NCBI RefSeq assembly: GCF_000015585.1
Contig: NC_008789.1
Coordinates: 2,100,001 to 2,132,000, forward strand
DNA length: 32,000 nt
Reading direction: 5' to 3'
From: Halorhodospira halophila SL1
GTDB taxonomy: Bacteria; Pseudomonadota; Gammaproteobacteria; Nitrococcales; Halorhodospiraceae
Shown here piece by piece: positions 3,965 through 26,247 of the stretch. The notes under the pieces were generated by a model. The model did no database searches. It had not been told where the DNA came from and worked only from the letters and a program-made list of their open reading frames with translations. The position numbers were made by a program, and so were the translations under genes. How positions within the stretch are numbered: the first letter of the stretch is position 1; each line of letters starts with the position of its first letter.

Positions 3965-4578
3965 TCGATCCCCGGCTGGGCGCGGACCCCGGCCTCGAAG
4001 GCGTGACGGGCCGAGGCGATCTCGCTGACCGTATCCGCGGCGTCGATCAGCGGCTGCGGGGCGTAGCGCCCGGTGACTACCACGTGCTGCCCGTAGGGCC
4101 GCCGGGACAGATCATCGAGCACCTCGCCAAGCTCCAGGTACTCGTAGCGCAGGACGGTGCACAGCTCGTCGAGCACCACCAGCGACGGGCCCTGCTCGCA
4201 CAACCACCCCCGGGCAGCCCGCCAGGCTGCCTGGGCCGCCGCCACATCCCGCTCGCGATCGGCGGTCTCCCAGGTGAAGCCCTCGCCCATCACCTGCCAG
4301 TCCACCCCGGGCTGATCGCGGAAGAAGGCCTCTTCGCCGGTGGCCTGCCGTCCCTTGATGAACTGCATCACTCCGGCCGTGCGGCCGTGACCGAGGGTAC
4401 GCGCGACCATCCCCAGCGCCGAGGAGCTCTTGCCCTTCCCGGAACCGGTGAGCACCAGCAGCACACCCCGATCCTGCTGGGCGCGGGACCGGCGCTCTTC
4501 CATCACCGCTCTCTTGCGCTCCATGCGCGCGGCGTGGCGTTGCGGATCCTTCGCATCTTCACGCATCGCTTCTCTCAC
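3958..4578 (-). CDS. cobO: Cob(I)yrinic acid a,c-diamide adenosyltransferase, CobA/CobO/BtuR type
   Basis: 206 aa. P-loop LVLTGSGKGKSSSALGMVAR, then MQFIKG and LVVLDEL, which are typical of CobO. Confidence 0.88.
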   Translation of the reverse strand: MREAMREDAKDPQRHAARMERKRAVMEERRSRAQQDRGVLLVLTGSGKGKSSSALGMVARTLGHGRTAGVMQFIKGRQATGEEAFFRDQPGVDWQVMGEGFTWETADRERDVAAAQAAWRAARGWLCEQGPSLVVLDELCTVLRYEYLELGEVLDDLSRRPYGQHVVVTGRYAPQPLIDAADTVSEIASARHAFEAGVRAQPGIEW

Positions 4579-4627
4579 CTCCTTACCTTCGGGGGACCAC
4601 CGGGCACCGGCGGCAGATCGACGTAGC

Positions 4628-5890: not shown

Positions 5891-5916
5891 CAGCGCGGGC
5901 GTGCCCACGGCCGCTC

Positions 5917-6768
5917 CTAACGCAGGATGAGCAGCGGCGTGCTCGAACGCATGATCATGTGCGTCGTGGTACTGCCGACAAAGAACCGGCGCAGCCGCGA
6001 GTGGCCGAAGGCCCCCATGGCCATCAGGTGAATGTCCTTCTCCTTGCGGTAGTTGCACACGGTCTCATCGATGCCGCCCGGGCGGACCTCGGCGTGCACG
6101 GTATACCCGGCTTCCTCCAGCTGCTGGCGCGGCCCCAGCAGGCGCTCACGGTTGACCGCCGTATCGGCATCCACCAGCAACAGGTGCGCCTCGAGGCCCT
6201 GAAGCAGCGGGCTCTCGGTGATGCGGTCCACCACCTTCTGGGCTGCCGGGCTCCCGTCGTAGGCGATCAGGAAGCGTTCCGGCTCCCGGAAATCCAGGGG
6301 GGCAACGAGGATCGGCTTCTGCACCCGGCGGATGGTGCTCTCCAGATGGCTGCCGATGTGCTGCGCCAGGGCGTCGCCGTCCTCGCCCTGCTTGCCAAGG
6401 ACCAGCAGCCGCATCTCGTCCTGGGCGTCGGCCAGCACGTCGGTAACCTCGCCGTTGCGCAGCAGCCGGCCGGGATTCTCGATGCCCTGCTCGCGGGCCC
6501 GGGCCATGGCGTCCTCCAGGATGGCACGCGCCTGTTCGCGGGCGAGTTTGCCGCGCTGCTCCTCGAGCGTAACCATCTCGTCGAGGAGATTCTCGCGCAC
6601 CCCAAAGGTCAGATTGCCGCTGAGATCCCGATCGCGCTCGCCGTGCGGGTTGCGGAATGCGTGCAGAAAGGTCAGGGGCGCATCCAGCCGTTTCGCTGCC
6701 CAGACCGCATGATCACAGACGGCCGGCGACGAGCGGGACCCGTCGACACTGGCAATGACTTTGCTCAT
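5917..6768 (-). CDS. Universal stress protein, tandem Usp domains
   Basis: MSKVIASVDGS...LTFLHAF in the first domain and FLIAYDGS...MGAFGHSRLRRFFVGSTTTHMIMRSSTPLLILR in the second. The ATG at 6768 has a GGAG 9 nt upstream. The alternative ATG at 6783 adds 5 aa. Confidence 0.8.
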   Translation of the reverse strand: MSKVIASVDGSRSSPAVCDHAVWAAKRLDAPLTFLHAFRNPHGERDRDLSGNLTFGVRENLLDEMVTLEEQRGKLAREQARAILEDAMARAREQGIENPGRLLRNGEVTDVLADAQDEMRLLVLGKQGEDGDALAQHIGSHLESTIRRVQKPILVAPLDFREPERFLIAYDGSPAAQKVVDRITESPLLQGLEAHLLLVDADTAVNRERLLGPRQQLEEAGYTVHAEVRPGGIDETVCNYRKEKDIHLMAMGAFGHSRLRRFFVGSTTTHMIMRSSTPLLILR

Positions 6769-10854: not shown

Positions 10855-12060
10855 TCAGCGGCGCACCTCCAGGCGGTCGCCGTCGCCGAGTTCCCGGGGC
10901 GGATGCACCACCACGGCCTCCCCGTCCTCCAGGCCGGAACGGAGGCGGGTCTGGCGGGCACCCCGCTCCCCGATCTCCACCGACCGCAGCCGCGCCCGCC
11001 CCTGCTCTGCGACCAGGACCGCCCAGCCGTCATCGTGGCGGAACAGGGCGCTGGTCGGCACCCGCAGCACGTCCTCCGCCGACCAGAGCACGAAGACGGC
11101 GTTGACCCGATAGCCGTCGCCGAGGCGCTCCCAGGCTTCCCGCGGCGATGCCAGATCGGCAATGACCCGCACCCGCCGCTCTTCCACGCCGAGGGCGGTA
11201 ATGTACTCGAAGCCGTAGGGCTCCACCCGGCGTACGACCGCCTCCAGGGGGGCCTCATCGCCCCAGCGCTCCAGCCGCACCGTCATCCCCGGCGTGATAC
11301 GCACCGCATCCGCCGAACGCACCTCCACCTCGACCTCCAGCCGCCCGAGATCGGCCATCTCCAGGATCGGCTCCCCGGGCTGCACCACCCGGGCGCTATC
11401 GAAGTGGCGCTTAAGGATCGCGCCATCGATCGGGGCGCGCAGACGGATCGGCTCGATGTCCCCGGGCGCCAGGGCGTCCTCCCCCTCCCAGCGCAGGACG
11501 GCCTCGGCCTGGTCGCGCTGCGCCTCGGCGGTGGCCACCCGGAACTGCGCCGAGCGCCACCCGGCCAAGGCCCGCCGTCGCTCGGCATCGGCACGCTCCA
11601 CCTCCCGCTCCGCGACCACTCCCTCCTCACCCAGAGCCGCCAGCCGACGGTACTCGTCGGCCGCCGACTCCGCTGCTGCCTGCGCCGCCTCGGCCTCCTC
11701 GCGGGCCGCCCCCAGCGCCGAGTGCGCCGCTTCGAGCTGGGCCCGGGCCTGATCCCGGGCACGGGCATCGAGCACCGGCACCGCCATCGGATCAAGGGTG
11801 GCGAGCACCTCCCCGGCCTCGACCCGGTCACCCGGTTCCAGGGTGATCCGGCGGGCCTGGGCCGCGGCCGGGGCCGAGAGGACGTACCGGTCCGCCACGC
11901 GGGTCTTGCCCTCCTCCTCGAGGGTGACCTCCAGGGGGCCACGGCTGACCGTCTCGGTATCGACGAGGATCGGCGCCGGCCGCAGCAGCAGGACGAGCAG
12001 CCCGAGGACCGCGAGACCGGTCAGTGCCCAGCCGATGATGGGCTTCCAGCGTGGATGCAT
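10855..12060 (-). CDS. HlyD/MacA-type periplasmic adaptor (membrane fusion protein) of an ABC efflux system
   Basis: MHPRWKPIIGWALTGLAVLGLLVLLL anchor, a lipoyl-like EAGEVLATLDP, and a long Ala/Glu/Arg coiled-coil segment. Start at the ATG at 12060, 2 nt after the permease stop. Confidence 0.8.
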   Translation of the reverse strand: MHPRWKPIIGWALTGLAVLGLLVLLLRPAPILVDTETVSRGPLEVTLEEEGKTRVADRYVLSAPAAAQARRITLEPGDRVEAGEVLATLDPMAVPVLDARARDQARAQLEAAHSALGAAREEAEAAQAAAESAADEYRRLAALGEEGVVAEREVERADAERRRALAGWRSAQFRVATAEAQRDQAEAVLRWEGEDALAPGDIEPIRLRAPIDGAILKRHFDSARVVQPGEPILEMADLGRLEVEVEVRSADAVRITPGMTVRLERWGDEAPLEAVVRRVEPYGFEYITALGVEERRVRVIADLASPREAWERLGDGYRVNAVFVLWSAEDVLRVPTSALFRHDDGWAVLVAEQGRARLRSVEIGERGARQTRLRSGLEDGEAVVVHPPRELGDGDRLEVRR

Positions 12061-12062
12061 CG

Positions 12063-14426
12063 CTACTCCCTCGATTTCAGGGCCTCGACCATGTCCAGCC
12101 GGTCCAGCCGGCGCCGCACCACCCACGCCGAGAGGCCGGCAACGGCGAGGATCACCAGGGTCGCCAGGGCCATGCCCGCCGGCGACGGGATCATGGGGAC
12201 CCGATAGAGCTCCGACTCCGCCGCCTGGACGATGATGGCGTAAAGGTAGTGGCCGATGACGAACCCCACCGGCAGGGCAGCGGCGATCAGCAAAGCCTGC
12301 TCGCCGAGCAGCAGGTAGGCGATCTCGCGGCGGGTGAAACCGAGCACCCGCAGGCTGGCCAGCTCCCGGGAGCGCTCCGCCAGCGCGATCCGCGCATTGT
12401 TATAGACCACCCCGAAGGCGATGGCTCCGGCAAGCAGCGTGGTCATCGCCGCGGTGACCATCATGGTCCCGGCCACATTCTCCTCGAAGTTGCGCATGGC
12501 GGCGTCGGCCTCGGTCGCCCCGGCGACCCGCGGACGGCGGTCGAGCTCGCGCAGCAACGCCCCGCGCTCCGGCCCGGCGAGGCCCAGCCAGGCGCCGGAG
12601 ATGGCGTCGCCGTCGCCGAGCAGCCGGTTCAGGGCATCCAGATCCATGTAAACGGACACCCCCAGGTACTCGGCGATCACCCCGCTGACCGGCACCTCCA
12701 GGGTCTGCCGCCGGCCCTCAAGCACCCGGATCTCCAACGTATCGCCGGGTCCGACCTGAAGCTGATCGGCCAGATAGTCGGTGAGCACCACCCCTTCCTC
12801 GGGCAGCGGCACCGTGCGCAGGTCGGTATCCAGCAGGCGGCGCAGGTCCGCACCGGGCTCCAGGCCGAGCACCGCCATCCGGTGACGACGATGGCCGAAG
12901 GCGACCTCTGCCGCCACCTGCCGGAACGGTTCGGCGCGGTCCACCCCCGGCAGACCGGCGAGCTCGTGCAACGCCTTGCGCGATGTCGGCTCGTAGAAGG
13001 AGACGGTCACGTCATCCCGCTGCACCAGGTTGAACTGGACGTCGATCATGGTATTGAGGGCGTTGCGCTGGTAGGGGCCGATCATCAGCACCGCTACCGC
13101 CAGGGCGATCCCCAGGGTCGCCAGCACCGCCCGCAGCGGACGCCGCTCGATGCCGCGCAGGATCATCCGCGTGGGCTGGCTGAACCAGCGCTGCAGACCG
13201 AGGCGCTCGACCACCGTAGGCCGGTAAGTCGGGGGTGGCTCCGGGCGCATCGCCTCCGCGGGTGGCAGTCGGGCGGCGCGGCGGACCGCCATCCAGGTCC
13301 CCAGCAGCGCCGAGGCCGCGGTCACCCCGGCGGCGATGGCCACCACCGGCAACTGCAGCCGGAACTCGAGGAATGGGAAGCGGAAGAATTCGGCGTAGAG
13401 CTCGGCCAGGTGCCCCCCCAGCCAATACCCGACGGCCACACCGACGGCCACGCCGAGGCCGACGATGAGCAGCACCAGCCGCATGTAGTGCGTAGCGATG
13501 GCCAGGCGCGAGTAGCCGAAGGCCTTCAGGGTGCCGATGATCTCGCGCTGGGTGGCGATCAGGCGACCGACCACGACATTGAGCAGGAAGGCCGCCACAC
13601 CGAGGAAGATCGCCGGGAGCACATAGGCGAGGTTGGCGAGCTGCGTCAGCTCATCCTCCAGCAGTGCGTGGGAGAGCTGATCCGCCCGGCCGTAGGCACC
13701 GCGCCCGCCCCAGGGCTCGAGCAGACGGTCCACGGCGTCGATCACGTCACCCGGCCGGGCTCCGTGCTGCAGCGTGAGCAACAGGTCGTTGAAGGCGCCG
13801 TCCATGTCGTAGGCGGCGGCCAGGGCCCGGCGATTCATCCACAGGATGCCGTAGCGCTCATAGTCCGGGAGGATCTCCCCCGGCCGGATCTGGTAGATGA
13901 ACTCCGGCGAGACCGCGACACCGACCACCTCCAGGCGCTGGTAACGGCCGCGGACGACCGCCGCCAGCCCGTCACCGGGGCGCAGCCCGTGGGCCTCGGC
14001 GAAGGCATCGCTGACCACCGCCTCCTGCTCCCGACCGGGCTCCGGCAGCCGACCGTGGCGCAGGTGGAGGCGGTTCATGTCCGGCTGCCGACCCTCGGGC
14101 AGGGAGAGGATGCGCCCGGTCACCGGGTTGTCGTAGCCGGGGACGTCCAGGTTGGCCGCCGCGACCACGCGGTCCTCGACCCGCTGGACGCCGTCGATGC
14201 CCCCGATCTCCTCCACCAGACCCCGCGGCGCCCGTTCGGCGGCGGCGAAGAGATCGGCGAAGCGGTACTCCTGATAGAAGGCGTCGCGGGTGTCGGTCAG
14301 GGCGAAGAGCGCGGTGAGAAACATCATCAGCGTCGCCACCCCGCCGGCGATGACCACCGCGATGGCGATCACCTGGCCGCGCATGAGCCCCAGTTCGCGC
14401 AGCAGCTTGCGGGTCAGCGCGGTCAC
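12063..14426 (-). CDS. ABC transporter permease with duplicated FtsX-like domains (YbbP/MacB-permease-like)
   Basis: 787 aa with two blocks of 4 TM segments, each preceded by a large extracytoplasmic domain. The GTG start overlaps the ATPase stop (GTGA). Confidence 0.8.
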
Positions 14427-15133
14427 CAGGAGAGCTCCGCCGCCCGACGCCGCTGATCGTTGGTGCGCACCGAGTCGATCAGGCCGTCCTTGAAGTCCAC
14501 CACCCGGTGAGCCATGGCGGCGATATCCGCGTTGTGGGTGATCAGCGCGGTGGTGGTGCCCAACTCCGCGTTGATGCGCTCGAGGACCTCCAGCACGGTC
14601 ACACCGGTCTTCGAGTCGAGGGCACCGGTGGGCTCATCACAGAGCAGGACCTGCGGGCGCTTGGCCACGGCGCGGGCGATGGCCACCCGCTGCTGCTCGC
14701 CCCCGGAGAGCTGGGAGGGAAAGTGATCCAGGCGGGCACCGAGGCCAACCAGCTCGAGTGCCTCCTCCGGGCGCATGGGGTCGCGGGCGATCTCGGTGAC
14801 AATGGCCACGTTCTCGCGCGCCGTGAGGCTCGGGATCAGGTTGTAGAACTGGAAGACAAAGCCGACGAAGTGGCGGCGGAACGCCGTCAGCTCCGCCTCC
14901 CCGGCTCGGGTGAGATCGCGCCCCTGGACGATGACCCGACCACTGGTGGGCGTATCGAGCCCACCGAGGATGTTCAGCAGCGTCGACTTGCCACTGCCCG
15001 ACGGCCCAAGGAGCACCACCAGCTCCCCGGCGTAGAGGACCAGATCCACCCCGCGCAGGGCGTGCACCGCCACCTCGCCCATGCGGTAGACCTTGGTAAT
15101 GCCCTCGGCACGGAAGACTTCTTGGGGGGACAC
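14423..15133 (-). CDS. ABC transporter ATP-binding protein (MacB/LolD-like)
   Basis: [25 protein letters not shown], Walker [10 protein letters not shown], signature [14 protein letters not shown], Walker [13 protein letters not shown]. The GTG at 15133 has a GAGGG SD. The TTG at 15163 in the track has none. Confidence 0.88.
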
Positions 15134-15234
15134 CAACCCGGGGCCCTCGCAACGGCGCAGCAACGGTTAGTGTCCAGTCTAGGCCGCTGACGCGGACACC
15201 ACCGCCCCCGGGGCGAGAGACCTCGCCGGTGCTT

Positions 15235-15951
15235 TTAACCCTCCGGCCCGCCGCTGGCGCCTCGCCGACGCAGCCGCGCCGCGGCGAGGCTGGAGAGCAG
15301 GGGCAGCGCGCCCAACGCCACCAGCGAGGCGATCATCCCAGTGCTCATCAGCTCCGCCGGGGTGTGGACCGCCTCCAGATGCGCCCCGGCGTTGGTGAGG
15401 ATGGTCACGCCAGGGAGCATGCCCAGCAGGCTCACCCAGAAGTAGGTCCGCGCCGGCATCCGGGTCAGCGCAAAGAGCGCGTTGATCAGGAAAGTGGGGA
15501 ACGGCTCGGCGATGCGCAGCAGGAACAGCGCACTCGGCCCGTGATCGGCACAGTGCCGGTCCACACGCTGCAGGGCGTCCGGGAACCGGCGGCGCACCGC
15601 ATCGTGGAGGGCGTAGCGGGTGAGCAGGAAGATCGCCAGCGCGCCGGTGCTCACCGCCACCAGGACCAGCGCCAGCCCCGCCCAGAACCCGAACATGACC
15701 CCGCCGGCAACGGTCAGCACCCCGCTGCCGGGCACCGAGACCACCGAGAAGAAAAAACGCAGGGCCAGGAAGGCGAGCGCCGCCTGCACCGGCTGCGACT
15801 CGGCCAGCTGCCGGAGCTGCTGCAGCTGGCCGTGCACCCAGGCCCACTCGGGGGCACTCCCGGCCCACAGGGCCCCGAGCAGCGCCACCAACAGCATCGC
15901 CAGAGCGGCGCGGGCGCCGAGGGTGGTCCAACGCAGGGTCGTTCCGTTCAC
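15235..15951 (-). CDS. TVP38/TMEM64 (DedA-superfamily, SNARE-associated) membrane protein
   Basis: 238 aa, multi-TM. VPGSGVLTVAGGVMFGFWAGL is typical of the family. The ATG overlaps the upstream stop by 4 nt (ATGA). Confidence 0.75.
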   Translation of the reverse strand: MNGTTLRWTTLGARAALAMLLVALLGALWAGSAPEWAWVHGQLQQLRQLAESQPVQAALAFLALRFFFSVVSVPGSGVLTVAGGVMFGFWAGLALVLVAVSTGALAIFLLTRYALHDAVRRRFPDALQRVDRHCADHGPSALFLLRIAEPFPTFLINALFALTRMPARTYFWVSLLGMLPGVTILTNAGAHLEAVHTPAELMSTGMIASLVALGALPLLSSLAAARLRRRGASGGPEG

Positions 15952-16513
15952 AGGTTCACCGGTGCCGGGTGGAGAAAGAGCTCGGTGCGATCGAAGGTCG
16001 GCATCCGGTGCCGGCAGCTACCCGCCACCGACTCGCCGACCAGCGGGCCCCCGTACTGACCCTCCAGGCCGGGCCGGGGCAGACGAAAGAGCACGCGCGC
16101 CGGCGCACGCTGGCGGCGGATATTGGCAAGGATCGGACCGCGCGGACAAGCCTGCAGAGCGATCAGGGCCACATCGATCTCCGGCAGGGGGTCGGCCGCC
16201 GCATCGGCACACACGACACGGACCCGGCCGGGCCCCGCCCCCGCCATCCCGAGATGGGCCACAACCGCCTGAGCCCCGGCGACCGCCGCGGCCGAACGGT
16301 CCACGGCGGTGACCCGGGCACCACTCAGTCGCGCGGCCAGCACTGCGGTGAACGGCAGGGCCCCGCAACCGACATGCAGGAGCCGCTCCCCCGGCACCAC
16401 CCCAGCCAGCCGCAGTTCCCGGGCCACCAACCGGCGGTACGGCAGGGCGTAGAGGTGGAACAGGAGCGGCCACCGGGCACTCCAGCGTTCCAGCCTGGCC
16501 ACGCAGGGGGCGA

Positions 16514-16523
<10 letters not shown>
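15948..16523 (-). CDS. Small class-I SAM-binding-fold protein with nicotianamine-synthase-like motifs
   Basis: YALPYRRLVARELRL...RLLHVGCGALPFTAVLAARL...VTAVDRS...VVCADA...IDVALIALQA. Start is the GTG at 16523 or the TTG at 16517 (TTGA overlap with the btuD stop). The 244-aa form in the track would overlap btuD by about 170 nt. Confidence 0.6.
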
Positions 16524-17290
<767 letters not shown>

Positions 17291-17298
17291 GACGCGAC

Positions 17299-18360
17299 CT
17301 ACCGACTCCGGTGCAGCAGATAGAGGAACAGCGGGACGCCGAGCATCGCCGTGATCACGCCCACCGGCAACTGCTCCGGGGCGATCAGGGTGCGCGCGAA
17401 GACGTCCGCCAGCGCCAACAGCGCGCCGCCGGCCAACGCCGCGGCGGGCAGGATCAGCCGCTGGTCGTTGCCCAGTACCAGGCGGAGCATGTGCGGCACC
17501 ACCAGACCGACAAACCCGATGCTCCCCGCGGTGGTCACCGCCACCGCGGTCAGCACGCTCGCCGCCACGTAGACCCCCCACTCCAGGGGCCTCACGGCCA
17601 CACCGAGGGCCGCCGCCTGGAGCGGCCCGCGGGCGAGGACGTTGAGGCTGCGCCCCAGGGGGACCGCCACCGCCACGGCCACCGCCAGCGCCGCCAGGGC
17701 CAGCCACGGGCTGCGCGCGTAGGCCAGATCCCCCATGAGCCAGTAGAGCATCCCGGGCAGCTGCTCGGTGGGGCCGACGGCGAGCATGAAGGTCACCAGC
17801 GCCCCCCAGCCGGAGGCCACCACCACCCCGGTGAGCAGCAGCCGGGTCGGCGTCCAGCTGCCGGTGCCGTGGGCCAGGCCGAAGACCAGCAGGGTTGAGA
17901 AGAGCGCCCCGACAAAGGCGGCCCCGGAGACCAGCGCCATCCCCAGGCCGGCGAGCATCGCCGCCAGGGCCCCCACGGCGGCACCGCCGGAGAGCCCCAG
18001 CACATAGGGATCGGCGAGCGGATTGCGCAGCAGCACCTGCATCAGCGCCCCGGCCACCGCCAGCAGGCCGCCGACGGCGAAGGCGGCCAGTGCACGGGGG
18101 AGGCGCAGCTCGAGGACCAGGGTGCGGTGCAGGGGCTCCCCGCCACCGGTGAAGACCGCCAGCACCTCCCCCGGGGTCAGCGGCACGCTGCCGATAGCCA
18201 CCGCAGTGGCCACCGCCAGCAGCGCCGCCCCGGCCAGCACGGCCAGCGGCACCAGGAAGCGCACCGGCGACCCGATGCGACTCGGCTGGGCCAAAGCGCC
18301 GCCCTCCTCACTCACCGCGCCGGCGCGCGCCCGCTGATCGGCTGTGCGCTCAACCCCCAT
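17299..18360 (-). CDS. btuC: FecCD/BtuC-family ABC importer permease
   Basis: 353 aa. LRLPRALAAFAVGGLLAVAGALMQVLLRNPLADPYVLGLSGGAAVGA is typical of the family. The start overlaps the btuF stop by 1 nt (TGATG). Confidence 0.85.
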   Translation of the reverse strand: MGVERTADQRARAGAVSEEGGALAQPSRIGSPVRFLVPLAVLAGAALLAVATAVAIGSVPLTPGEVLAVFTGGGEPLHRTLVLELRLPRALAAFAVGGLLAVAGALMQVLLRNPLADPYVLGLSGGAAVGALAAMLAGLGMALVSGAAFVGALFSTLLVFGLAHGTGSWTPTRLLLTGVVVASGWGALVTFMLAVGPTEQLPGMLYWLMGDLAYARSPWLALAALAVAVAVAVPLGRSLNVLARGPLQAAALGVAVRPLEWGVYVAASVLTAVAVTTAGSIGFVGLVVPHMLRLVLGNDQRLILPAAALAGGALLALADVFARTLIAPEQLPVGVITAMLGVPLFLYLLHRSR

Positions 18361-19247
18361 CAGCGATTGCGCCGGGCCTGCTGGAGCTTGTCACACAGCA
18401 CCCGCGTCCCCTCCAGGATGCGTGGCGTCGGGCGCTGGATCGTGGACGGCTCGACAAAAAAGAGGTTGTCCTTGGCGGTGGCCTCGAGGATGTCATAGCG
18501 CCGCCACTCCTCCAGCCACGAGTCATCCGCCTCGCCCATGCCGCCGGCGACGATCGCCTCCGGGTCGGCCGCAAGGATGGACTCGGTGTCCAGCCGCGGG
18601 GTCAGGCTGTCGAGATCACCGAAGACGTTCTCGCCGCCGCAGATGCGGATCGACTCGCTGATGATCTGCTCGTCGTTGACGGTCATCACCGGGTCCGGCC
18701 AGATCTGGTAGAAGACCCGCACCGGATCGCGGTCGGCGTACTCGGCCTCCAGCTCGTCCCGCGCATCGCGGAAGCGGGCGGCCTCGGCGTCGGCCTCGTC
18801 TTCAGTGCCGGCCAGGGTACCCAGACGCTCCAGGGAGGTGGCGATCTCGTCGAGGACCTTCGGATCGCTGCGGTAGAGCGGCAGGCCCAGCGCCTCGATC
18901 CGCTCCAGCTGGCTGCTGGAGTTGCCGCTGGTCCAGCCCACCACCAGATCCGGATCCTTCGCGAGGATCGACTCCATATCGAGCCGGTCGTAGGTGCCGA
19001 CCCGGGGCAGTTCCTCCGCCGCCTCCGGATAATCCGCGTGACTGACCGCGGCCACCACATGGTCCCCGGCGCCGGCGGCGAAGAGCAGTTCCGTCGCCCC
19101 GGGCGAGAGGGCCACAATCCGCTCCGCCGGGGCCTCCAGGCAGACCTCGCGGCCGGCGTCGTCCTCCACGCAGCGTTCACCAGCATGCACCGGCGACCAC
19201 GCCGCCAGCAGCACCAGAAATCCGGCTGCGATGCCCCCTAGCGCGGT
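18360..19247 (-). CDS. btuF: Periplasmic cobalamin-binding protein BtuF (start codon unresolved)
   Basis: RIVALSPGATELLFAAG...DYPEAA...DPDLVVGW...RVFYQIW...ICGGENVF...RPTPRILEG aligns by eye along E. coli BtuF. A signal-peptide-like ARTALGGIAAGFLVLLAAWSPVHA precedes it. The first roughly 290 aa of the 582-aa ORF in the track are a shadow over Uma2 and pduO. Confidence 0.8.
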   Translation of the reverse strand, partial: TALGGIAAGFLVLLAAWSPVHAGERCVEDDAGREVCLEAPAERIVALSPGATELLFAAGAGDHVVAAVSHADYPEAAEELPRVGTYDRLDMESILAKDPDLVVGWTSGNSSSQLERIEALGLPLYRSDPKVLDEIATSLERLGTLAGTEDEADAEAARFRDARDELEAEYADRDPVRVFYQIWPDPVMTVNDEQIISESIRICGGENVFGDLDSLTPRLDTESILAADPEAIVAGGMGEADDSWLEEWRRYDILEATAKDNLFFVEPSTIQRPTPRILEGTRVLCDKLQQARRNR

Positions 19248-19840
19248 TCGGGCCCCGGCGGGGCGTCCTCGAAGACCTCGGCCCCGATGAGCCGGGCCTC
19301 CAGGCTGGCCAGCACCACTTCTTCGTGGGCCTCGTGCGGGTACAACACCCAGTGGCCCTGACCGTCCGCCCGGTAGAGCTCCAGGCTCCCGATCTCCGGG
19401 TCGATGAGGAGATACTCCCGGAGCGAAGGGAGTTTGCGGTAGGCGGCAAACTTGGCACCCCGGTCGTACGCCGCCGTGGAGGGGGACAGCACCTCCACCA
19501 CGAGGCACGGCGCCTCCTTGTGCTGGGACCGCTGATGATCGGCCGGATCGCAGGTCACCAGCACATCCGGGTAGAAGAAGGCGTCGGCAGCCGCCACCCG
19601 CACCTTCATGTCGGCCATGTACGTACGGCAGCCACCCCCGCGCAGCTGCTGGCGCAGCGCGCTGGCCACGTTCAGCGTCACGGTCACGTGGCGGTCCGAG
19701 GCCCCGCCCATGGCGAAGATCTCCCCCGCCACGAACTCGTGCTTGAGGGGTTGCTCCGCCTCCCAGGCGAGGTACGCCTCGGCGGTCATCCCGGCGGGCT
19801 GCGGATCGGCCATGGCTGGAACCTCGGGATACACAGTCAT
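19238..19840 (-). CDS. Uma2-family (DUF820) restriction-endonuclease-fold protein
   Basis: 200 aa. AEAYLAWEAEQPLKHEFVAGEIFAMGGAS..HVTV..N, FFYPDVLVTC and PCLVVEVLSPST...DRGAKFAAYRKLPSLREYLLID match the Uma2 pattern (D...EVxS...K core). The alternative ATG at 19813 has a GAGG SD. Confidence 0.8.
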   Translation of the reverse strand: MTVYPEVPAMADPQPAGMTAEAYLAWEAEQPLKHEFVAGEIFAMGGASDRHVTVTLNVASALRQQLRGGGCRTYMADMKVRVAAADAFFYPDVLVTCDPADHQRSQHKEAPCLVVEVLSPSTAAYDRGAKFAAYRKLPSLREYLLIDPEIGSLELYRADGQGHWVLYPHEAHEEVVLASLEARLIGAEVFEDAPPGPEPR

Positions 19841-19971: not shown

Positions 19972-20541
19972 CTAAGCGCCCTCATCCGCCGCCCGCTGAC
20001 CCGCCGGACGCCAGAGCACCTCGCCGCCGTTCTCGTAGCGGGAGAGAACCCGGGCAACGACGAAGAGCAGGTCGGAGAGGCGGTTGAGGTAGGCCATAGA
20101 CTCGTCACGCACCGCCTCGTGATGGCTCAGGGCCACCAGCTTGCGCTCGGCCCGGCGACAGACCGCCCGGGCGATATGGCAGTCCGCCGTGGCCTTGCCG
20201 CCACCGGGGAGGATGAACTCCTTGAGGTGCGGCAGGGAATCGTTGAAGTACGCCAGCGCCCCATCCAGCCGTTCCACGGCCTCGAGGGGCAGCGCCGAGT
20301 GACCGGGCACAGCCAACTCGGCGCCCAGGTCGAAGAGCTCGTTCTGGACCTGGGCCAGCACCGGCGCCACGTCTTCTGGCAACTCATGGGCCAGTAAGCG
20401 GCCCATGAAGCTGTTCAGCTCATCCACCTCGCCGAAGGCCTCGACCCGGTGGCTGTCCTTGTCCACCCGCGAACCGTCGCCGAGGCCGGTCCGGCCCTCG
20501 TCCCCGGTGCGGGTGGCGATCTTTGATAGACGGTTTCCCAT
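19972..20541 (-). CDS. pduO: ATP:cob(I)alamin adenosyltransferase, PduO/MMAB type
   Basis: MGNRLSKIATRTGDEGRTGLGDGSRVDKDSHRVEAFGEVDELNSFMG...LPGG...AVCRRAER...YLNRLSDLLFV. The ATG at 20541 has a GGAGGAA SD. Confidence 0.88.
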   Translation of the reverse strand: MGNRLSKIATRTGDEGRTGLGDGSRVDKDSHRVEAFGEVDELNSFMGRLLAHELPEDVAPVLAQVQNELFDLGAELAVPGHSALPLEAVERLDGALAYFNDSLPHLKEFILPGGGKATADCHIARAVCRRAERKLVALSHHEAVRDESMAYLNRLSDLLFVVARVLSRYENGGEVLWRPAGQRAADEGA

Positions 20542-20644
20542 GGTTCCTCCGTGCTCCGGTCTTGATCCATTTCCTGCCCGAGGCGGCGGCTGAAGATGCC
20601 GGCTCTCCAGCCGCGCGCTGAGCACTGCTCCAACTGCCTACCTG

Positions 20645-22528
20645 CTACTGCTGATTGAAGTGCAGCGAGACGTACACCGCCCGCCCCGGCTGGTTGTAGC
20701 CGCCCACCGTCTCGTACTCCTTGTCCAGGGCGTTCTCCAGCGTCCCGCGCAGGGTCCACTCCGGGGTGATGGCGTAGCTGGTGCGGAGATTGAGGAGGCC
20801 GTAGCCGGAGAGGCGCACGCGTTCCGACTGACTGGTAGCCATATCAAAATCGGTGTCATAGCTTCGCCCCCGCAGCAGGCCAGTGGCCCCCAAGGAAAAA
20901 TCCCCCAGCTCGCGATCGATTTCCAATCGGAACGACTCACTCGGGCGCCGAAGCAACTCCTCACCCGTCTCCCGGTCCTCGTGATCGAGGTAGGTGAACG
21001 CGCCAGAAAACTGCCATTCCTGCCAGTGCGCCCCCGCCTCCAGCTCGGCACCGCGGATGCGGGCCTCTTCGACATTGCCAGGCTGCGTCCAATCCTGCTG
21101 ACCATCCACTGGCTTATCAGCGATCAAATTGTCGATGTCCGTCCGGAACAGCGCTGCATCCACATAGCCCCTTCTGACCTGCCAGCGTGCACCCACCTCC
21201 GCAGAAGCGGACGTCTCGGCCTCAAGGTCCGTATTTCCTCCGGCAAGCAACCAATTCGGGTTTTCAGGTGCATACAGGTCGTTGAATGTCGGCGCCTTGA
21301 AAGCCGTGCCGTAGCTCGAACGCAGCCGAAGTCGATCCGTTGCGTCAAAGCCCCAGGCGACCTGACCGGTCACGTTGTCACCGTAAGCCTCGTTGTCGTC
21401 GTAACGCAGGCTGGCACCGAGGTCATGTCGGCCTAAATCCAACTCGAGCTGCGAATACGCACCGGCGTTGTACCGGCTGGTTTCGTCATAATCGTCGGCG
21501 GTGTCGACTTTCTCATCTCGCCAGTCACCGCCAAAGGCCCAGACATGCCCGGCGCCCCAATACAGCTCATTCCGCCAACTTACCTCGTGGCGTTCAGTGT
21601 ACTGCCATGTCTCTCCCCGGCTATCGACGTTATCCTGCTCATCCTTCGCCTGGGAGACCGCCAGCTCGCTGAACCAGCGCTCGGTGAGGTCCCCGCGGAC
21701 GCCGCCACGGAGGGCCTGGAAGTAGTGATCCGTCCAGTCCTCTTCGCCAAGTCTTGTCCCGTCGAACTCGTTTGTACCCTCTGAGCGGAACCCCGTCGCG
21801 AAGAGTTCGGCACCGCCGGGTAGCCGATGGCTGAAACGGCCGCTGAAGCTGGTGTTCTCAAAGCCGTCGGGGTCCTCATCTCCCTCACCGTCCTGGACGT
21901 TGATCCCGTCCGTCTCGTAGTGGCTGGCCGAGAGGGCGTAGCGGCTAGCCGCAGTCCCGCCAGAGACACCCAAACCGAATTCGTGGGTGTTGAACGACCC
22001 GGCGCCGCCGAAGGCACGGAAGCGCGGAGGGCCCTCCTCCCCCTGGCGGGTGAAGACCTGGACCACACCGCCGACGGCGTCGGCGCCGTAGACGCTGGTG
22101 CGCGGCCCGCGCACCACCTCGATGCGGTCAATCTCGGCAGGAGGCAGATATTGCCAGGCGGCCCCTCCTTGCGTCGCCGAATTCATCGGCACCCCATCGA
22201 CCAGCAACAGGGTATGGTCAGAGTTGGTACCGCGCATGAACAGACTGGTGCTCTTGCCGAACGGACCCGACGTCGTCAGGCTCGACCCCGCCTGACCCTG
22301 CAGCAGATCCGAGACCTGCCGAGGCTGCTGGCGGTCGATCTGCTCGCGGTCGATGACGGAGACGGAGGACAGGGACTCATCGACGGTCTGGGCCATTCGA
22401 GTTGGCGTGACCACGAGGGGCGCGAGTTGTGCGGACTCCCCGTCGGTATCGGCGATCGCCGGGCCGGCACTTACGGCAAGACCGGCCGCCACACCCGCGG
22501 CGACCCGGCTGGTGGTGTTGCTGGGCAT
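20645..22528 (-). CDS. btuB: TonB-dependent vitamin B12 outer-membrane receptor BtuB
   Basis: From the ATG at 22528: signal peptide, then LAPLVVTPTRMAQTV (TonB-box region), VSVIDREQIDRQQPRQVSDLLQGQAG, SLFMRGTNSDHTLLLVDGVPMN and RIEVVRGPRTSVYGADAVGGVVQVFTR, which parallel E. coli BtuB. The C terminus ends in HFNQQ. The 88 N-terminal residues in the track lie in the riboswitch leader. Confidence 0.9.
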   Translation of the reverse strand: MPSNTTSRVAAGVAAGLAVSAGPAIADTDGESAQLAPLVVTPTRMAQTVDESLSSVSVIDREQIDRQQPRQVSDLLQGQAGSSLTTSGPFGKSTSLFMRGTNSDHTLLLVDGVPMNSATQGGAAWQYLPPAEIDRIEVVRGPRTSVYGADAVGGVVQVFTRQGEEGPPRFRAFGGAGSFNTHEFGLGVSGGTAASRYALSASHYETDGINVQDGEGDEDPDGFENTSFSGRFSHRLPGGAELFATGFRSEGTNEFDGTRLGEEDWTDHYFQALRGGVRGDLTERWFSELAVSQAKDEQDNVDSRGETWQYTERHEVSWRNELYWGAGHVWAFGGDWRDEKVDTADDYDETSRYNAGAYSQLELDLGRHDLGASLRYDDNEAYGDNVTGQVAWGFDATDRLRLRSSYGTAFKAPTFNDLYAPENPNWLLAGGNTDLEAETSASAEVGARWQVRRGYVDAALFRTDIDNLIADKPVDGQQDWTQPGNVEEARIRGAELEAGAHWQEWQFSGAFTYLDHEDRETGEELLRRPSESFRLEIDRELGDFSLGATGLLRGRSYDTDFDMATSQSERVRLSGYGLLNLRTSYAITPEWTLRGTLENALDKEYETVGGYNQPGRAVYVSLHFNQQ

Positions 22529-22674
22529 GCTTTCCTCCCTTCCGCGCGCCACCCGCACGCGCGTCGGTCCGGTTACACCGCAGGGAGGAAGACAGGGATG
22601 GGGGAAGGGTTCGCGCTTGCGCCCGGCAAACGGTGGCCTGCCCCGGTCTGCCGCCTCCCGCGGCACCTGGGTTC

Positions 22675-22887
22675 CCTCAGGCCGGTCTCCGGGCTCGTGG
22701 GTGGGGTCGGGTGACCCCGGGCGGATCGCCTTCCCGCAGGGCCCGCCGCCGAACGACGACGCCTTGCAGTGGCCTTCTGATCCGCCCCCCACCTACCGTT
22801 GCGGGGGCAGCGCCGGACTCGCCGCTGGGTGCGGCTGTACCGGTCTTCCCGTTTCACCCCGCCGCTGCTCGCGCGGGGCACCTGAGG
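22675..22887 (-). promoter_or_regulatory. Cobalamin (AdoCbl) riboswitch b, leader of btuB
   Basis: Minus-strand read: CCTCAGG...ggggtgaaacgggaagaccggtacagccgcacccagcggcgagtccggcgctgcccccgcaacggtaggtgggg...GCCACTG (plus-strand cagtggc at 22767-22773)...gggaaggcg...agcccggagaccggCCTGAGG. P1 is closed by CCTCAGG/CCTGAGG. Confidence 0.88.
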
Positions 22888-22895
22888 AAGTTGGT

Positions 22896-22924
22896 ACTCT
22901 AGGCAGCTCGCTCACCGGCGTCAA
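22896..22924 (-). promoter_or_regulatory. Putative sigma70-type promoter for riboswitch b/btuB (TTGACG-N17-TAGAGT)
   Basis: Minus-strand TTGACG (22924-22919) and TAGAGT (22901-22896) with a 17-nt spacer. The predicted TSS is about 2 nt before the P1 strand. Confidence 0.45.
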
Positions 22925-23009: not shown

Positions 23010-23771
23010 ATGACGCCTGAGCCGCTGCGCGTGCTGCTCCTCGGCGGCACCGGCGAGGCGCTGACGCTCGGCCAAGCGCTGGAGCAGGAGCCCGGGATCG
23101 CCGCGGTCTACTCCGTGGCCGGGGTGACCCGCCACCCACGGCTACCTCAACTGCCGGTGCGTCGCGGCGGCTTCGGCGGCGCTGTCGGCCTGGCCGCGTA
23201 CCTGCAGCAGCACGGCGTGCACTGCCTGGTCGATGCCACCCACCCCTTCGCTGCCGGCATCTCCGCCAACGCAGCGGCGGCCGCCCGGCAAACGGGGACA
23301 GCCTTGCTGGCGGTGCGCCGGCCGGCGTGGCAGCCGGGGCCGGATGAGCAGTGGCATCGGGTGGCCGACATGGCCGCCGCCGCCGAGGCGCTGGGGCCAC
23401 AGTCGAGCCGGGTACTGCTGACCATCGGCAATCAGGAGGTCCCGGCCTTCTGCGCGGCACCCCACCACCGCTACTGGATCCGCTGCCTGGAGCAGCCGGC
23501 GCAGACCCCGCCCGGGGCGGAACTGCTCTTCCAGCGCGGGCCGTTCCGTTACGCCGACGAGTGCCGCCTGCTCCGCGCGCACGGCATCGACACCCTGGTC
23601 ACCAAGAACGCCGGCGGGGCCGCCACCCGCAGCAAGCTGGATGCGGCTCGGGACTGCGGGGCCCGGATCGTGATGGTCGAGCGCCCGCCGGACCCGCCCG
23701 AGGCGGAGGTGGCCACCGACGTCGGGCACGCACTGGCGTGGCTCCGCAGCTACCTTCAAGGGCGCTGGTGA
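23010..23771 (+). CDS. cobK: Precorrin-6A / cobalt-precorrin-6A reductase (CobK/CbiJ)
   Basis: 253 aa. VLLLGGTGEA, LVDATHPFAAGIS, TKNAGGAAT and KLDAARDCGARIVMVERP are typical of CobK. Confidence 0.85.
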   Translation: MTPEPLRVLLLGGTGEALTLGQALEQEPGIAAVYSVAGVTRHPRLPQLPVRRGGFGGAVGLAAYLQQHGVHCLVDATHPFAAGISANAAAAARQTGTALLAVRRPAWQPGPDEQWHRVADMAAAAEALGPQSSRVLLTIGNQEVPAFCAAPHHRYWIRCLEQPAQTPPGAELLFQRGPFRYADECRLLRAHGIDTLVTKNAGGAATRSKLDAARDCGARIVMVERPPDPPEAEVATDVGHALAWLRSYLQGRW

Positions 23772-23794: not shown

Positions 23795-23823
23795 TTGAAT
23801 CTAATTTGCTCGCCTGCTAACGT
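23795..23823 (+). promoter_or_regulatory. Putative sigma70-type promoter for riboswitch c (TTGAAT-N17-TAACGT) in a locally AT-richer patch
   Basis: Hexamers at 23795-23800 and 23818-23823. The riboswitch P1 begins about 10 nt downstream. Confidence 0.4.
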
Positions 23824-23832
23824 CCGACCCGC

Positions 23833-24060
23833 CAATGGGTGCCCGCCGAGGCCACTCCGCCTCGCGGGTTAAACGGGAAGACCGGTTCAGCCGCACCCAG
23901 CGGCGAGTCCGGCGCTGCCCCCGCAACGGTAGGTGGGTGGCGGCAGACCCCGAGAGCCACTGCGGATCGCACGTCCCCTGGGCGGCATCCGCGGGAAGGC
24001 AGTCTGCCGCCCGGAGGTCTTCTCACCTCCGCCCCACAAGCCCGGAGACCGGCCCATGGC
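23833..24060 (+). promoter_or_regulatory. Cobalamin (AdoCbl) riboswitch c, leader of the receptor-cbiD unit
   Basis: aatgggtgcc...gggttaaacgggaagaccggttcagccgcacccagcggcgagtccggcgctgcccccgcaacggtaggtgggt...GCCACTG (23956-23962)...gggaaggcag...agcccggagaccggcccatgg. Confidence 0.88.
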
Positions 24061-24216
24061 CAACCGGAAGACCGCGGGAGGCGGTGCGCCGGGATCGGTC
24101 TCCAGTGCGCGCGGCATCCTGCCGGGCGTCGCCTCGGCTAGCCGAACCCCGCCCCACTGACTCCCCGCGGTACACGCAACCGCAATCGCGCACGGGCGGT
24201 GCGCAGAGGAGTCAGC

Positions 24217-26247
24217 ATGGCTACAGGACAGCCCATCGCCAGGGCGCTGCTGAGCGGCGCCGCGGCCCTCCCCCTGATGGCAACACCGAAGGCTGGATCG
24301 GCCGAGGAACACCCCACCGTCCTCCCCGACCTGACCGTCACCGCAGCCACGCGCACGGAGCGCCAGGTGGAGCGGACACCGGCGGCCACGGAGATCCTAT
24401 CCGGAGACGACATCCGGCGCAGCGGTGCTGCCATGCTCGATGAGGCGCTTCAGGCAGAGTCGAGCATCTACACCGGGGTAGACGGCAACACCTTCTCCAT
24501 CCGCGGCGGCAACCGCGATGACATGCTCTATCTCATCGATGGCCGCCGCATCGCCGGCACCTCATCCCGTAGCAACGAACTCAACCGGATCCCGGTGAGC
24601 CATGTCGAGCGTATCGAGATCGTTAAGGGGCCCGGCAGCGTGGTCTACGGGGCGGACGCTGTGGCCGGTGTCATCAACGTGATCACGCGGCGGCCGGAGC
24701 CCGGCCTGGAAGGCGGCGTCTCCGCCCAGGCCGGAACGCCAACCGACGCGGAGGGCGGTGAGCAGTACCAAGGGGGCCTCTACCTGGGCGGTGGCACGCA
24801 AGATACGCGCTTTCGGCTCTTCGCCGACGCCCTCGAGCGCGAGGCGTACTCGGAGGAGACAACCACTCAACCCGACGAGGGTGGCGCTCCATCTTCCCAG
24901 ACCTTCGATCGGGATCTCCGCCCATCCGCCGATGTGTACACCCTCCGCGGCGGAGTGACCCACTGGTTCACCGATCGCTTCCATATCGATCTCGAAGCCG
25001 GTTTCCTGACCGAGGAGCGGCAAGAGCGCCTCGTCCAAGGCAGCGGCCCGGGCAATATTGAAGACTTTGCAGCTGTGGAGACCGAGGAGAGCGACCGGCG
25101 CGACCTGGCGGCGACGGCGGAGTGGCTGGCCACCGAAAACCTGGAGCTGCGCTACCAGGCCTACGAGAGCCATTATAAGTTTGACCGTGTCCGGTCGCAC
25201 CTTGCTCCGCAGGACTTCGCCTCGGACGCAGCAGATCGAGACTTCGGCTTCCGCGAGGCGACCTTCACCGAGCGCGTCAACGACTTCCTGGCACAATGGC
25301 AGCCGGCGCCCCGCCACACCGTGCTGACGGGCCTCGAGCACAAGCAGCAGATCTACCAGGACCTCCAGCCAGAAGACGAACCCGAGCACGACCAGTGGGT
25401 AGGCGGCGGCTTCCTGCAGCACGAGTGGCAAGCCACGGACCGCCTGGATCTGGTCTACGGCGCTCGGCATGACGAGACCTCCACGGAGGCGGACAGCACC
25501 TCGCTTCAGGCCGGAGCTGTTTACCGCCTGGCCCCCGAGGTCCGACTGCGCGCCCAGTACGCTGAAGGCTTCAAGCTGCCCGAGCTGCGCTCCTTTTACG
25601 TCGATACGGAAGATGGCCAGGGGCGCGAAGTTCGCGGCGCCTACGTCATTGACCCGGATGTTGGTAAGGACGAGACACACGAACTCGATCCCGAGAGCAG
25701 CCGCAACTACGAGTTCGGCATCGCCGGCGACCTGAATCTGCAAAGAGATATCACGGCGTTCTACGACATCGGACTCTTCTACACCGAGTACGATGATCGC
25801 ATCGGGCGGGCACCGGGGAACGGTTACCAAACCTTCAAAAACGTCGACAGCGCCCGCGCCCAGGGGGCCGAGCTCAAGCTCGGCGCCGCCTTCGACCCGC
25901 AACTCGAGCTGACGCTGGCCGCCACCTACCTCGACGCCATCGACCGCGACAGCCGGGAGACCCTCACCGATACGCCTGAATGGACAGCGGTAGCCAAGGC
26001 GCTGTGGACGCCCACGGACCCGCTGGAGGTGCAATTACGCACCCGATACGTGGATGAAGTGCGCGTTGGCGACGACTGGGACAGCGCCTACACCCTCACC
26101 GGCCTGGATGTCGCGTATGCCCCTGCGGCCTGGGATGGGCTCAGGCTCCAGGGCGGTATCGAGAACCTGCTGGATGAGGGCAACGACTCCTCCCTTCGAG
26201 CCGACCCCGGGCGCTTCGCCCGTGCAGGTGTGCGGTATGATTTCTAG
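24217..26247 (+). CDS. TonB-dependent outer-membrane receptor (cobalamin-riboswitch controlled; substrate unknown)
   Basis: MATGQPIARALLSGAAALPLMA signal peptide, LPDLTVTAATRTE, TFSIRGGNRDDMLYLIDGRRI and IEIVKGPGSVVYGADAVAGVINVITR, with a C-terminal ...ARAGVRYDF. The ATG at 24217 has an AGGAG SD. The GTG at 24199 in the track adds 6 aa. Confidence 0.88.
   Translation: MATGQPIARALLSGAAALPLMATPKAGSAEEHPTVLPDLTVTAATRTERQVERTPAATEILSGDDIRRSGAAMLDEALQAESSIYTGVDGNTFSIRGGNRDDMLYLIDGRRIAGTSSRSNELNRIPVSHVERIEIVKGPGSVVYGADAVAGVINVITRRPEPGLEGGVSAQAGTPTDAEGGEQYQGGLYLGGGTQDTRFRLFADALEREAYSEETTTQPDEGGAPSSQTFDRDLRPSADVYTLRGGVTHWFTDRFHIDLEAGFLTEERQERLVQGSGPGNIEDFAAVETEESDRRDLAATAEWLATENLELRYQAYESHYKFDRVRSHLAPQDFASDAADRDFGFREATFTERVNDFLAQWQPAPRHTVLTGLEHKQQIYQDLQPEDEPEHDQWVGGGFLQHEWQATDRLDLVYGARHDETSTEADSTSLQAGAVYRLAPEVRLRAQYAEGFKLPELRSFYVDTEDGQGREVRGAYVIDPDVGKDETHELDPESSRNYEFGIAGDLNLQRDITAFYDIGLFYTEYDDRIGRAPGNGYQTFKNVDSARAQGAELKLGAAFDPQLELTLAATYLDAIDRDSRETLTDTPEWTAVAKALWTPTDPLEVQLRTRYVDEVRVGDDWDSAYTLTGLDVAYAPAAWDGLRLQGGIENLLDEGNDSSLRADPGRFARAGVRYDF

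Follow-up and report, generated by a model that had tools for sequence, protein, structure and literature searches.

A truncated relative of nicotianamine synthase beside cobalamin uptake genes of Halorhodospira halophila and beside metal-uptake genes of soda-lake microorganisms

In Halorhodospira halophila SL1, a btuB-pduO-btuFCD operon behind a cobalamin riboswitch closes with two genes that raise the question of what a small S-adenosylmethionine (SAM)-fold protein and a membrane protein do in an operon for corrinoid uptake. Both lie in the window analysed here, the whole 32,000-nt stretch of contig NC_008789.1 from position 2,100,001 to 2,132,000 (G+C ~70%); coordinates below refer to this window unless another locus is named. 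Judged by sequence, the SAM-fold protein is a true, truncated relative of nicotianamine synthase (NAS) and of the staphylopine-pathway enzyme CntL that falls short of the curated membership thresholds, and it belongs to an uncharacterised family of shortened NAS-like enzymes, here called mini-NAS. We give an even chance to the reading that this enzyme and the membrane protein coupled to it would make and move a nicotianamine-type metal ligand, with a cobalt- or corrinoid-related role in Halorhodospira and a role beside Feo elsewhere. Ligands of the nicotianamine type have so far been found in plants, in a few pathogens and in one methanogen.

15948-16523, minus strand: A-type mini-NAS, a NAS/CntL-like SAM-fold protein of 191 aa (open reading frame, Pfam, family profile against PDB, AlphaFold2 model, Foldseek)
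15235-15951, minus strand: VTT/DedA (TVP38/TMEM64, YdjX-like) membrane protein of 238 aa (Pfam VTT_dom, GTGA overlap, same pairing in a second Halorhodospira strain)

The original prediction had placed a SAM-fold protein of about 190 aa, translationally coupled to a TVP38/DedA protein, at the end of btuFCD, and both open reading frames were found at exactly these coordinates. The mini-NAS frame runs from 16523 to 15948 and begins with a GTG codon, its start overlapping the stop codon of the upstream ATP-binding cassette (ABC) ATPase gene (16516-16514) by 10 nt. Its TGA stop shares the tetranucleotide GTGA with the GTG start of the VTT gene (15951 to 15235), an overlap that fits translational coupling of the two genes. 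The assigned GTG start is supported by homologues that begin with the same N-terminal MRxI...VA..LE. A longer start was rejected: the frame is open to 16682, and the 53 residues that this would add are of low complexity, lie over btuD and have no counterpart in any homologue. The motifs YALPYRRLV, LLHVGCGALPFTAVLAA, AVD, VCADA and DVALIALQA are all found in the 191-aa protein, and a 99%-identical H. halophila protein carries the NCBI name "SAM-dependent methyltransferase".

The membrane protein matches Pfam VTT_dom (PF09335) well above threshold (E 1.8e-22, 80.6 bits, cut-off 33.9), and its closest named relatives are YdjX-type TVP38/TMEM64 proteins. The search for its relatives yielded just a few, all of them distant; one stands beside a DtxR-type regulator and another in a context unrelated to metals. 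The former, the nearest relative outside Halorhodospira (41% identity; locus L076, 3974-5729), is encoded divergently from a DtxR-type iron-dependent repressor gene, which may be a single weak hint of metal regulation elsewhere for this VTT subfamily. A search of plasmid sequences gave no match.

Kinship with nicotianamine synthase and CntL

A profile search of 1.84 billion representative proteins returned 94 representatives of the family at E < 1e-30, nearly all of them 177-215 aa long. Compared with PDB, a profile of the 30 closest homologues retrieved the NAS of Methanothermobacter thermautotrophicus (MtNAS; PDB 3FPE, 3FPG, 3O31) at E 1e-16 and CntL (PDB 7C7M, 7C9M) at 4e-11, followed by CbiT at 1e-7. 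A profile of 103 diverse members gave the same order at 6e-22, 2.4e-19 and 3.7e-8, placing MtNAS and CntL more than 11 orders of magnitude ahead of the other solved structures. Given the E-value of 6e-22 between family profile and MtNAS, and a synteny that recurs in a second Halorhodospira strain, we do not regard the NAS match as a chance one. Pfam NAS (PF03059) is matched at E <= 0.01 by 76 of the 103 A-type members, at best with 1.1e-9, and in family members of low G+C content CntL is the top NCBIfam match (38-39 bits for both the A- and the B-type protein of Natroniella, the B-type being a paralogue described below). The claim that the protein resembles NAS and CntL rather than corrin methyltransferases is thus borne out at the level of the family.

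Predicted structure leads to the same relatives. The AlphaFold2 model of the H. halophila mini-NAS (pLDDT 92.3, pTM 0.87) retrieved MtNAS entries first in Foldseek (E 1.4e-11, TMq 0.75 over 193 aligned columns), and the best methyltransferase reached a TMq of at most 0.64; normalised to the target, the TM-score of MtNAS is 0.56. The structural comparison called for by the original prediction therefore came out in favour of NAS.

Across the 103 members, E12, E36, G52, G54, P57, R147 and Y157 are invariant and Y29 is kept in at least 90%. In the profile alignments Y29 falls on MtNAS Tyr107, the tyrosine of "YPRY" (numbering cross-checked with Tyr106 of AtNAS1), and E36 on the next conserved glutamate after it. 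The GxGxxPxT motif GCGALPFT aligns with GGGPLPLT of NAS and is followed by the acidic residues D75 and D77 after strand 2, as in a SAM-binding Rossmann core, while R147 and Y157 align with the "R[ST]...LY" motif of NAS. In MtNAS, Tyr107 and Glu81 activate the acceptor amine (PMC10491745), and the equivalent residues are essential in AtNAS1 (PMC10248798). E12 lies one helix upstream of Y29, where a counterpart of Glu81 (AtNAS1 Glu77) would be expected; this correspondence is one of position only. In the profile alignment of the B-type paralogue, the invariant N-terminal glutamate aligns without gaps with a glutamate of CntL.

At about 190 aa, mini-NAS is much shorter than plant, fungal and archaeal NAS (~265-320 aa). 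In the AlphaFold2 model only two helices (residues 4-40) precede strand 1, and the alignments begin at MtNAS residue ~95, indicating that some 80 N-terminal residues of NAS, the three helices of the lid domain, are missing. Mini-NAS thus has no counterpart of the N-terminal helical domain with which NAS closes its buried reaction chamber, nor does it have the VGMD insertion of the plant enzymes. What mini-NAS shares with MtNAS and plant and fungal NAS, its best profile and structural matches, is the Rossmann core with GxGxxPxT, the catalytic tyrosine and the glutamate that follows it, and the C-terminal R...LY and PT..S motifs. Unlike NAS, which is one iterative enzyme, the family comprises two paralogues, A and B, and its genes lie beside those for FeoAB, CbiMQO or BtuFCD and for flippase-like proteins.

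CntL, the D-histidine 2-aminobutanoyltransferase of staphylopine, pseudopaline and yersinopine synthesis, is the second-best solved relative and, like mini-NAS, is encoded beside metal-uptake genes. In contrast to mini-NAS, which occurs in free-living haloalkaliphiles, CntL is found in pathogens; mini-NAS is also shorter, and its scores against the CntL model (NF033601) are 20-39 bits where the equivalog cut-off is 350. The suggested resemblance to CntL-type enzymes holds as far as homology goes and is not carried by the CntL cut-off or by the missing N-terminal region. An opine dehydrogenase had been named as a telling neighbour. Among the annotated genes of the window and of the homologous loci with their cassettes, and with no search dedicated to CntM, we saw neither a CntM-type opine dehydrogenase nor CntK nor Cnt-type importers or exporters.

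Three other assignments were considered and rejected. For corrin or corrinoid-protein methyltransferases, CbiT and CpaM reached 15-25 bits in the motif region only and lay at least 11 orders of magnitude below NAS and CntL in the profile searches; azetidine-carboxylate synthases were absent among the matches listed (the top 60 of the profile search and the top 50 of Foldseek); and Spermine_synth, the family of spermidine synthases, was matched by only 7 of the 103 members. Some members are already named automatically as "nicotianamine synthase (family) protein" in NCBI and UniRef, so the homology as such is not entirely new. A full-text literature search, with most subscription journals outside its coverage, returned nothing that links NAS-like genes to Feo or to soda lakes.

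Genomic company and habitat of the family

The GTDB was scanned, one genome per species, with two peptide patterns from the family alignment, and neighbours within 5 kb were annotated with hidden Markov models built from exemplars. The scan gave 63 loci, a census that is biased towards sequences keeping those two motifs. Within 5 kb, FeoA is encoded in 49 of the 63 loci, a PF03706/TIGR00374 (MprF-type) flippase-like protein in 48, FeoB in 46 and the paralogous B-type mini-NAS likewise in 46; where enough flanking DNA was available, FeoAB is present in 25 of 29 loci. The usual cassette runs from the A-type mini-NAS through the flippase-like gene and a B-type mini-NAS fused to FeoA to FeoB, and in many loci the A gene is translationally coupled to the membrane-protein gene. 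A- and B-type proteins are related at an hhalign probability of 100% (E 2.7e-46); MtNAS and CntL are the best PDB matches of the B-type profile as well, and both types share the same invariant residues. Natural fusions join A, B and FeoA; A and FeoA; FeoA and B; and a flippase-like region, B and FeoA. Most members thus resemble Feo systems in sitting in an operon-like cassette with FeoA and FeoB, their B-type often fused to FeoA; to our knowledge, neither SAM-fold enzymes nor flippase-like proteins are encoded in canonical feo operons. In Natroniella, the gene immediately upstream encodes Fur, and the B-type protein, at 64 bits, exceeds the threshold of Pfam NAS.

Other loci link the family to different metal importers. 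In an uncultured Desulfovibrionaceae genome (L072, 7456-10775), a cobalamin riboswitch (124 bits) is followed by an A-type gene and then by CbiM, CbiQ and an ABC ATPase, which is a second, independent B12-riboswitch context, here with a cobalt/nickel importer of the energy-coupling factor type. Riboswitches ahead of typical Feo cassettes were not detected with Rfam in nine loci, nor in any locus with an nhmmer model built for the purpose, a less sensitive tool than a covariance model. A BtuFCD-type importer beside the family recurs in only one further locus, from a member of the Halanaerobiaceae (L070, 4152-10879), in which a Peripla_BP_2-FecCD-ABC importer and an FmdE-domain protein are encoded directly upstream of A-type mini-NAS, FeoA and FeoB. 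Soda-lake Spirochaetaceae hold the closest homologue outside Halorhodospira (56% identity; L001/L002/L011, 8001-8866), followed by a gene for an 86-aa, metallochaperone-like protein with an HMA (heavy-metal-associated) domain; these loci lack flippase-like and Feo genes. Two further Spirochaetaceae loci (L006/L007, 5730-8069 and 5540-7879) encode an A-type protein, a flippase-like protein and then, as a protein of its own with 212 aa, a class I methyltransferase. FeoAB is missing from their surroundings, and the order of the three genes resembles the betaine-lipid logic of BtaA/BtaB, in which aminocarboxypropyl transfer is followed by methylation.

The Halorhodospira arrangement is atypical for the family: its order of BtuFCD, A-type mini-NAS and VTT is unique among the loci examined, a VTT partner occurring in 0 and FecCD in 1 of the 63. 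The expectation that the gene would be found in a metal context was nevertheless confirmed, as the family occurs almost exclusively in metal-uptake neighbourhoods. The proposed link to cobalt fared less evenly; the Desulfovibrionaceae order of riboswitch, A-type gene and CbiMQO fits it, whereas the main partner of the family is Feo, a ferrous iron system. Overall, the earlier inference was largely right on homology and plausibly right on metals, with the genomic company of the family now pointing to iron more than to cobalt, and possibly to lipids.

Soda-lake metagenome-assembled genomes (MAGs) and cultured haloalkaliphiles, of many bacterial and archaeal phyla, supply at least 48 of the 63 loci. 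MAG labels of Kulunda Steppe soda lakes account for 38 loci, and labels PLM2, DLM2 or GEM2, which we take to denote Cariboo Plateau soda lakes, for 5. Another 5 belong to the cultured haloalkaliphiles Alkalispirochaeta alkalica, Natroniella, Fuchsiella alkaliacetigena, Ca. Methanocrinis natronophilus and Halanaerobium polyolivorans. One co-assembly group contributes 10 loci and other sources 5. Among the latter is Methanocalculus chunghsingensis (L029), which encodes the full cassette of A, B-FeoA, FeoB and flippase-like protein and presumably is not a soda-lake isolate, so that the habitat restriction is strong and not absolute. Carriers include Spirochaetes, several orders of Firmicutes, Thermoplasmata, Methanomicrobia, Actinomycetota, Bacteroidales, Thermotogae, a Mollicutes MAG and a bacterium of the candidate phyla radiation; that so many phyla share one habitat suggests horizontal spread within it. 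The labels CSSed and CSBr stand for Cock Soda Lake, at pH 10 (PMC6704655). Free iron, cobalt and nickel would be very scarce at a pH of about 10.

A possible metal ligand and competing explanations

Repeated linkage of the family to Fur, cobalamin riboswitches and uptake systems for Fe(II), Co(II)/Ni(II) and corrinoids makes metal acquisition or handling its best supported role. Mini-NAS appears to retain the Rossmann core that binds SAM, along with the catalytic constellation known from NAS and CntL, while lacking the N-terminal helical domain. From this constellation and the intact SAM site, we propose that it most likely moves the 3-amino-3-carboxypropyl (aminobutyrate) group of SAM onto an amine acceptor, with release of methylthioadenosine. 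The product would be a nicotianamine-type polyaminocarboxylate ligand for divalent metals, either soluble or lipid-anchored, which the VTT/DedA protein would most likely carry over the inner membrane, free or on a lipid headgroup. The Halorhodospira pair would be expressed together with the B12-riboswitch operon, and the ligand might be made when cobalamin is scarce and help to acquire cobalt or corrinoid-related metal; elsewhere, in the majority of carriers, the enzyme may serve FeoB-dependent uptake of ferrous iron.

If this is true, mini-NAS is a distinct shortened enzyme family spread over at least eight bacterial and archaeal lineages and tied to one extreme habitat, where the solubility of iron, cobalt and nickel is very low. 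It would then offer a first biochemical handle on the trace-metal supply of haloalkaliphiles, an unexpected accessory module for Feo, whose mechanism and partners remain poorly understood, and a new gene class in the cobalamin-riboswitch regulon; a lipid-anchored product would be a new kind of metallophore. Cultured carriers are H. halophila, Natroniella, F. alkaliacetigena and A. alkalica.

Several points weigh against this proposal. Taken by itself, the H. halophila protein scores 12 bits (E 0.13) with Pfam NAS, below the gathering threshold of 27.1 bits, and 20 bits with CntL; it does pass Methyltransf_25 (31.1 against 27 bits) and Methyltransf_11 (24.8 against 21.2 bits), within residues 49-127 only. 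In the comparison of Pfam NAS with the methyltransferase families that had been suggested as a check, the single protein passes the generic methyltransferase models only, and of the 103 members 76 match Pfam NAS and 84 Methyltransf_25. Neither the alignments of the profiles with MtNAS nor the one with AtNAS1 extend as far as the Glu81 helix and E12. With some 80 chamber-closing residues missing, the substrate and even the type of reaction could differ from those of NAS. The riboswitch lies 6 kb upstream of the gene pair, and a 131-nt gap precedes the Uma2-family gene within the operon. A word-indexed search found no B-type paralogue from Halorhodospira among 24 clusters, and the Halorhodospira window contains no Feo genes. 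FeoB and CbiMQO import free ions and not chelates, so a classical cycle of secreted metallophores is not obviously served. For the PF03706/TIGR00374 and VTT/DedA families, the known or proposed cargo is lipid and not a metallophore. Finally, the family is known from sequences and a predicted structure alone.

Because the usual partner is lipid-flippase-like, the product may not be the free, exported small molecule that the original prediction envisaged. In view of the lipid-translocator partners, the lost NAS lid and the preference of FeoB and CbiMQO for free ions, a ligand anchored in lipid or kept close to the membrane has to be considered seriously beside a secreted metallophore. One such explanation, which we regard as possible though unlikely, borrows the logic of MprF, in which a cytosolic headgroup-modifying enzyme works with a PF03706/TIGR00374 flippase: the mini-NAS enzymes would add aminocarboxypropyl units to an amine lipid headgroup, e.g. 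of phosphatidylethanolamine, on the cytoplasmic face, and the flippase-like or VTT/DedA protein would flip the lipid outward, so that a nicotianamine-like, metal-binding headgroup might end up beside the importer. The usual partner indeed passes the TIGR00374 "flippase-like domain" model (128 against 43 bits), with weaker matches to the MprF flippase and to a flippase of glucosaminyl phosphatidylglycerol. Spirochaetaceae fusions of an N-terminal flippase-like transmembrane region, a cytosolic B-type mini-NAS and FeoA mirror the MprF layout of flippase and synthase, and the coupling of A genes to membrane genes in many loci fits as well. The lost lid could open the acceptor site to a bulky substrate, as the model suggests. 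In Halorhodospira the partner is exchanged for VTT/DedA, an unrelated family that has also been proposed to translocate lipids. The parallel has its limits, since the enzyme domain is NAS-like and not an aminoacyl-phosphatidylglycerol synthase, and the partner in the window is not PF03706. Moreover, a flippase-like gene is missing from the surroundings of 6 of the 29 well-flanked loci, and the Desulfovibrionaceae and HMA loci lack any membrane partner. We know of no aminocarboxypropyl-modified amino-lipid made by a NAS-like enzyme. The known lipid aminocarboxypropyl transferase, BtaA, is unrelated (PMC10491745). More speculatively still in its scope, and doubtful as a whole, the various loci could be joined into one horizontally spread soda-lake module in which two shortened NAS-like enzymes build a nicotianamine-like lipid headgroup, an MprF- or DedA-type translocator flips the lipid, and the anchored metallophore hands Fe(II) or Co(II) to FeoB, CbiMQO or BtuFCD-type importers at pH ~10. 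The hand-over of Co(II), which would concern Halorhodospira and the Desulfovibrionaceae genome, is part of this joint picture and shares its doubtful standing.

That mini-NAS is an ordinary class I SAM-dependent methyltransferase of a small molecule, lipid or protein, resembling NAS through shared ancestry only, seems improbable to us. The generic cut-offs are the only ones that the H. halophila protein passes, Methyltransf_25 is matched by 84 of the 103 members, the NCBI name points the same way, and NAS enzymes themselves have a methyltransferase fold, the domain that defines their chamber being the one missing here. However, these matches are confined to the Rossmann motif region; they show the fold and say nothing of methyl transfer. 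Profile and structure searches put two aminobutyrate transferases far above any methyltransferase, and NAS-specific residues outside the SAM site (the catalytic tyrosine, the following glutamate and R...Y) are invariant or nearly so across phyla. An adaptation of the envelope to high pH and salt, such as a tuning of headgroup charge, with transporters as incidental neighbours, would agree with a near-restriction to soda lakes that crosses domains and with lipid-flippase-like partners; we hold it to be very unlikely, as the metal linkage is too tight and too varied, extending from FeoA fusions and FeoB in 25 of the 29 well-flanked loci to Fur, a riboswitch with CbiMQO, BtuFCD and HMA. A paralogue fused to FeoA, which is a small domain that interacts with FeoB, could also hint at a non-catalytic, SAM-binding regulatory subunit that tunes adjacent transporters. 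Given that catalytic residues of NAS beyond those for SAM binding are invariant in both paralogues, and that stand-alone genes adjoin unrelated types of transporter, such a subunit is scarcely credible.

The cobalamin operon and the rest of the window

In the nicotianamine-type reading, the Halorhodospira pair would owe its cobalt or corrinoid role to the operon that it closes, whose further features, with a block of genes on the other side of the pair, are as follows.

16514-17275, minus strand: BtuD-like ABC ATPase (Pfam ABC_tran 114 bits; NCBIfam matches to heme, corrinoid and BtuD ATPases)
17299-18360, minus strand: BtuC/FecCD permease (Pfam FecCD 277 bits; NCBIfam BtuC E 3.8e-67)
18360-19217, minus strand: BtuF-like periplasmic binding protein, start approximate (Pfam Peripla_BP_2 84 bits; NCBIfam BtuF E 2.7e-49, below the curated cut-off)
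19238-19840, minus strand: Uma2-family putative endonuclease gene within the operon (Pfam Uma2 131 bits)
19972-20625, minus strand: PduO-type ATP:cob(I)alamin adenosyltransferase (Pfam Cob_adeno_trans 191 bits)
20645-22660, minus strand: TonB-dependent receptor (BtuB-like), first gene of the operon (Pfam Plug and TonB_dep_Rec_b-barrel)
22663-22900, minus strand: cobalamin riboswitch aptamer ahead of the operon (Rfam RF00174, 72.8 bits, E 2.5e-16)
22896-22924, minus strand: sigma-70-like promoter site just 5' of the riboswitch (consensus scan 9/12, a pattern match only)
10855-15163, minus strand: ABC ATPase, MacB/FtsX permease and HlyD-type adaptor (Pfam; same order in the second strain)

Receptor, binding protein, permease and ATPase are encoded on the same strand with short gaps and a riboswitch upstream, as expected of a riboswitch-controlled btuB-btuFCD operon; the start of the BtuF-like protein was guided by a 285-aa orthologue in locus L074. 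A terminator scan of the minus strand from the receptor to the VTT gene found none except a hairpin inside the mini-NAS coding sequence (16111-16090), and the gene pair is probably co-transcribed with the riboswitch. The whole gene order is repeated in the second Halorhodospira strain, in which mini-NAS is 87% identical. The Uma2-family gene (putatively restriction endonuclease-like), which separates btuF from the adenosyltransferase gene, keeps its position there too.

On the other side of the pair, the ABC ATPase/MacB/HlyD block, with a 787-aa double-FtsX permease, follows after a 72-nt gap 3' of the VTT gene, in which we found no T-tailed hairpin on the minus strand. The block may be co-transcribed with the gene pair; that it acts as the pair's exporter is speculative, and it could also be unrelated.

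Three cobalamin riboswitches occur within the 32 kb (2162-2406, minus strand; 22663-22900, minus strand; 23820-24071, plus strand), each directly before a TonB-dependent receptor gene. The respective receptors are encoded on the minus strand from ~2100 to 1, leaving the window at its left end, at 20645-22660, and at 24199-26247, the last being followed by cbiD. One of these B12-controlled receptors could import a cobalt chelate or a corrinoid precursor. The window also holds a cobalamin island (2513-6058, minus strand; 26250-27371 and 30459-31946, plus strand) with CobQ-like and CbiA/CobB-like amidotransferases, CobO, CbiD and a sirohaem synthase of the CysG type, and a probable CbiJ is encoded at 23010-23771. 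Together with the B12 uptake genes, these biosynthetic genes indicate that the organism both makes and imports corrinoids.

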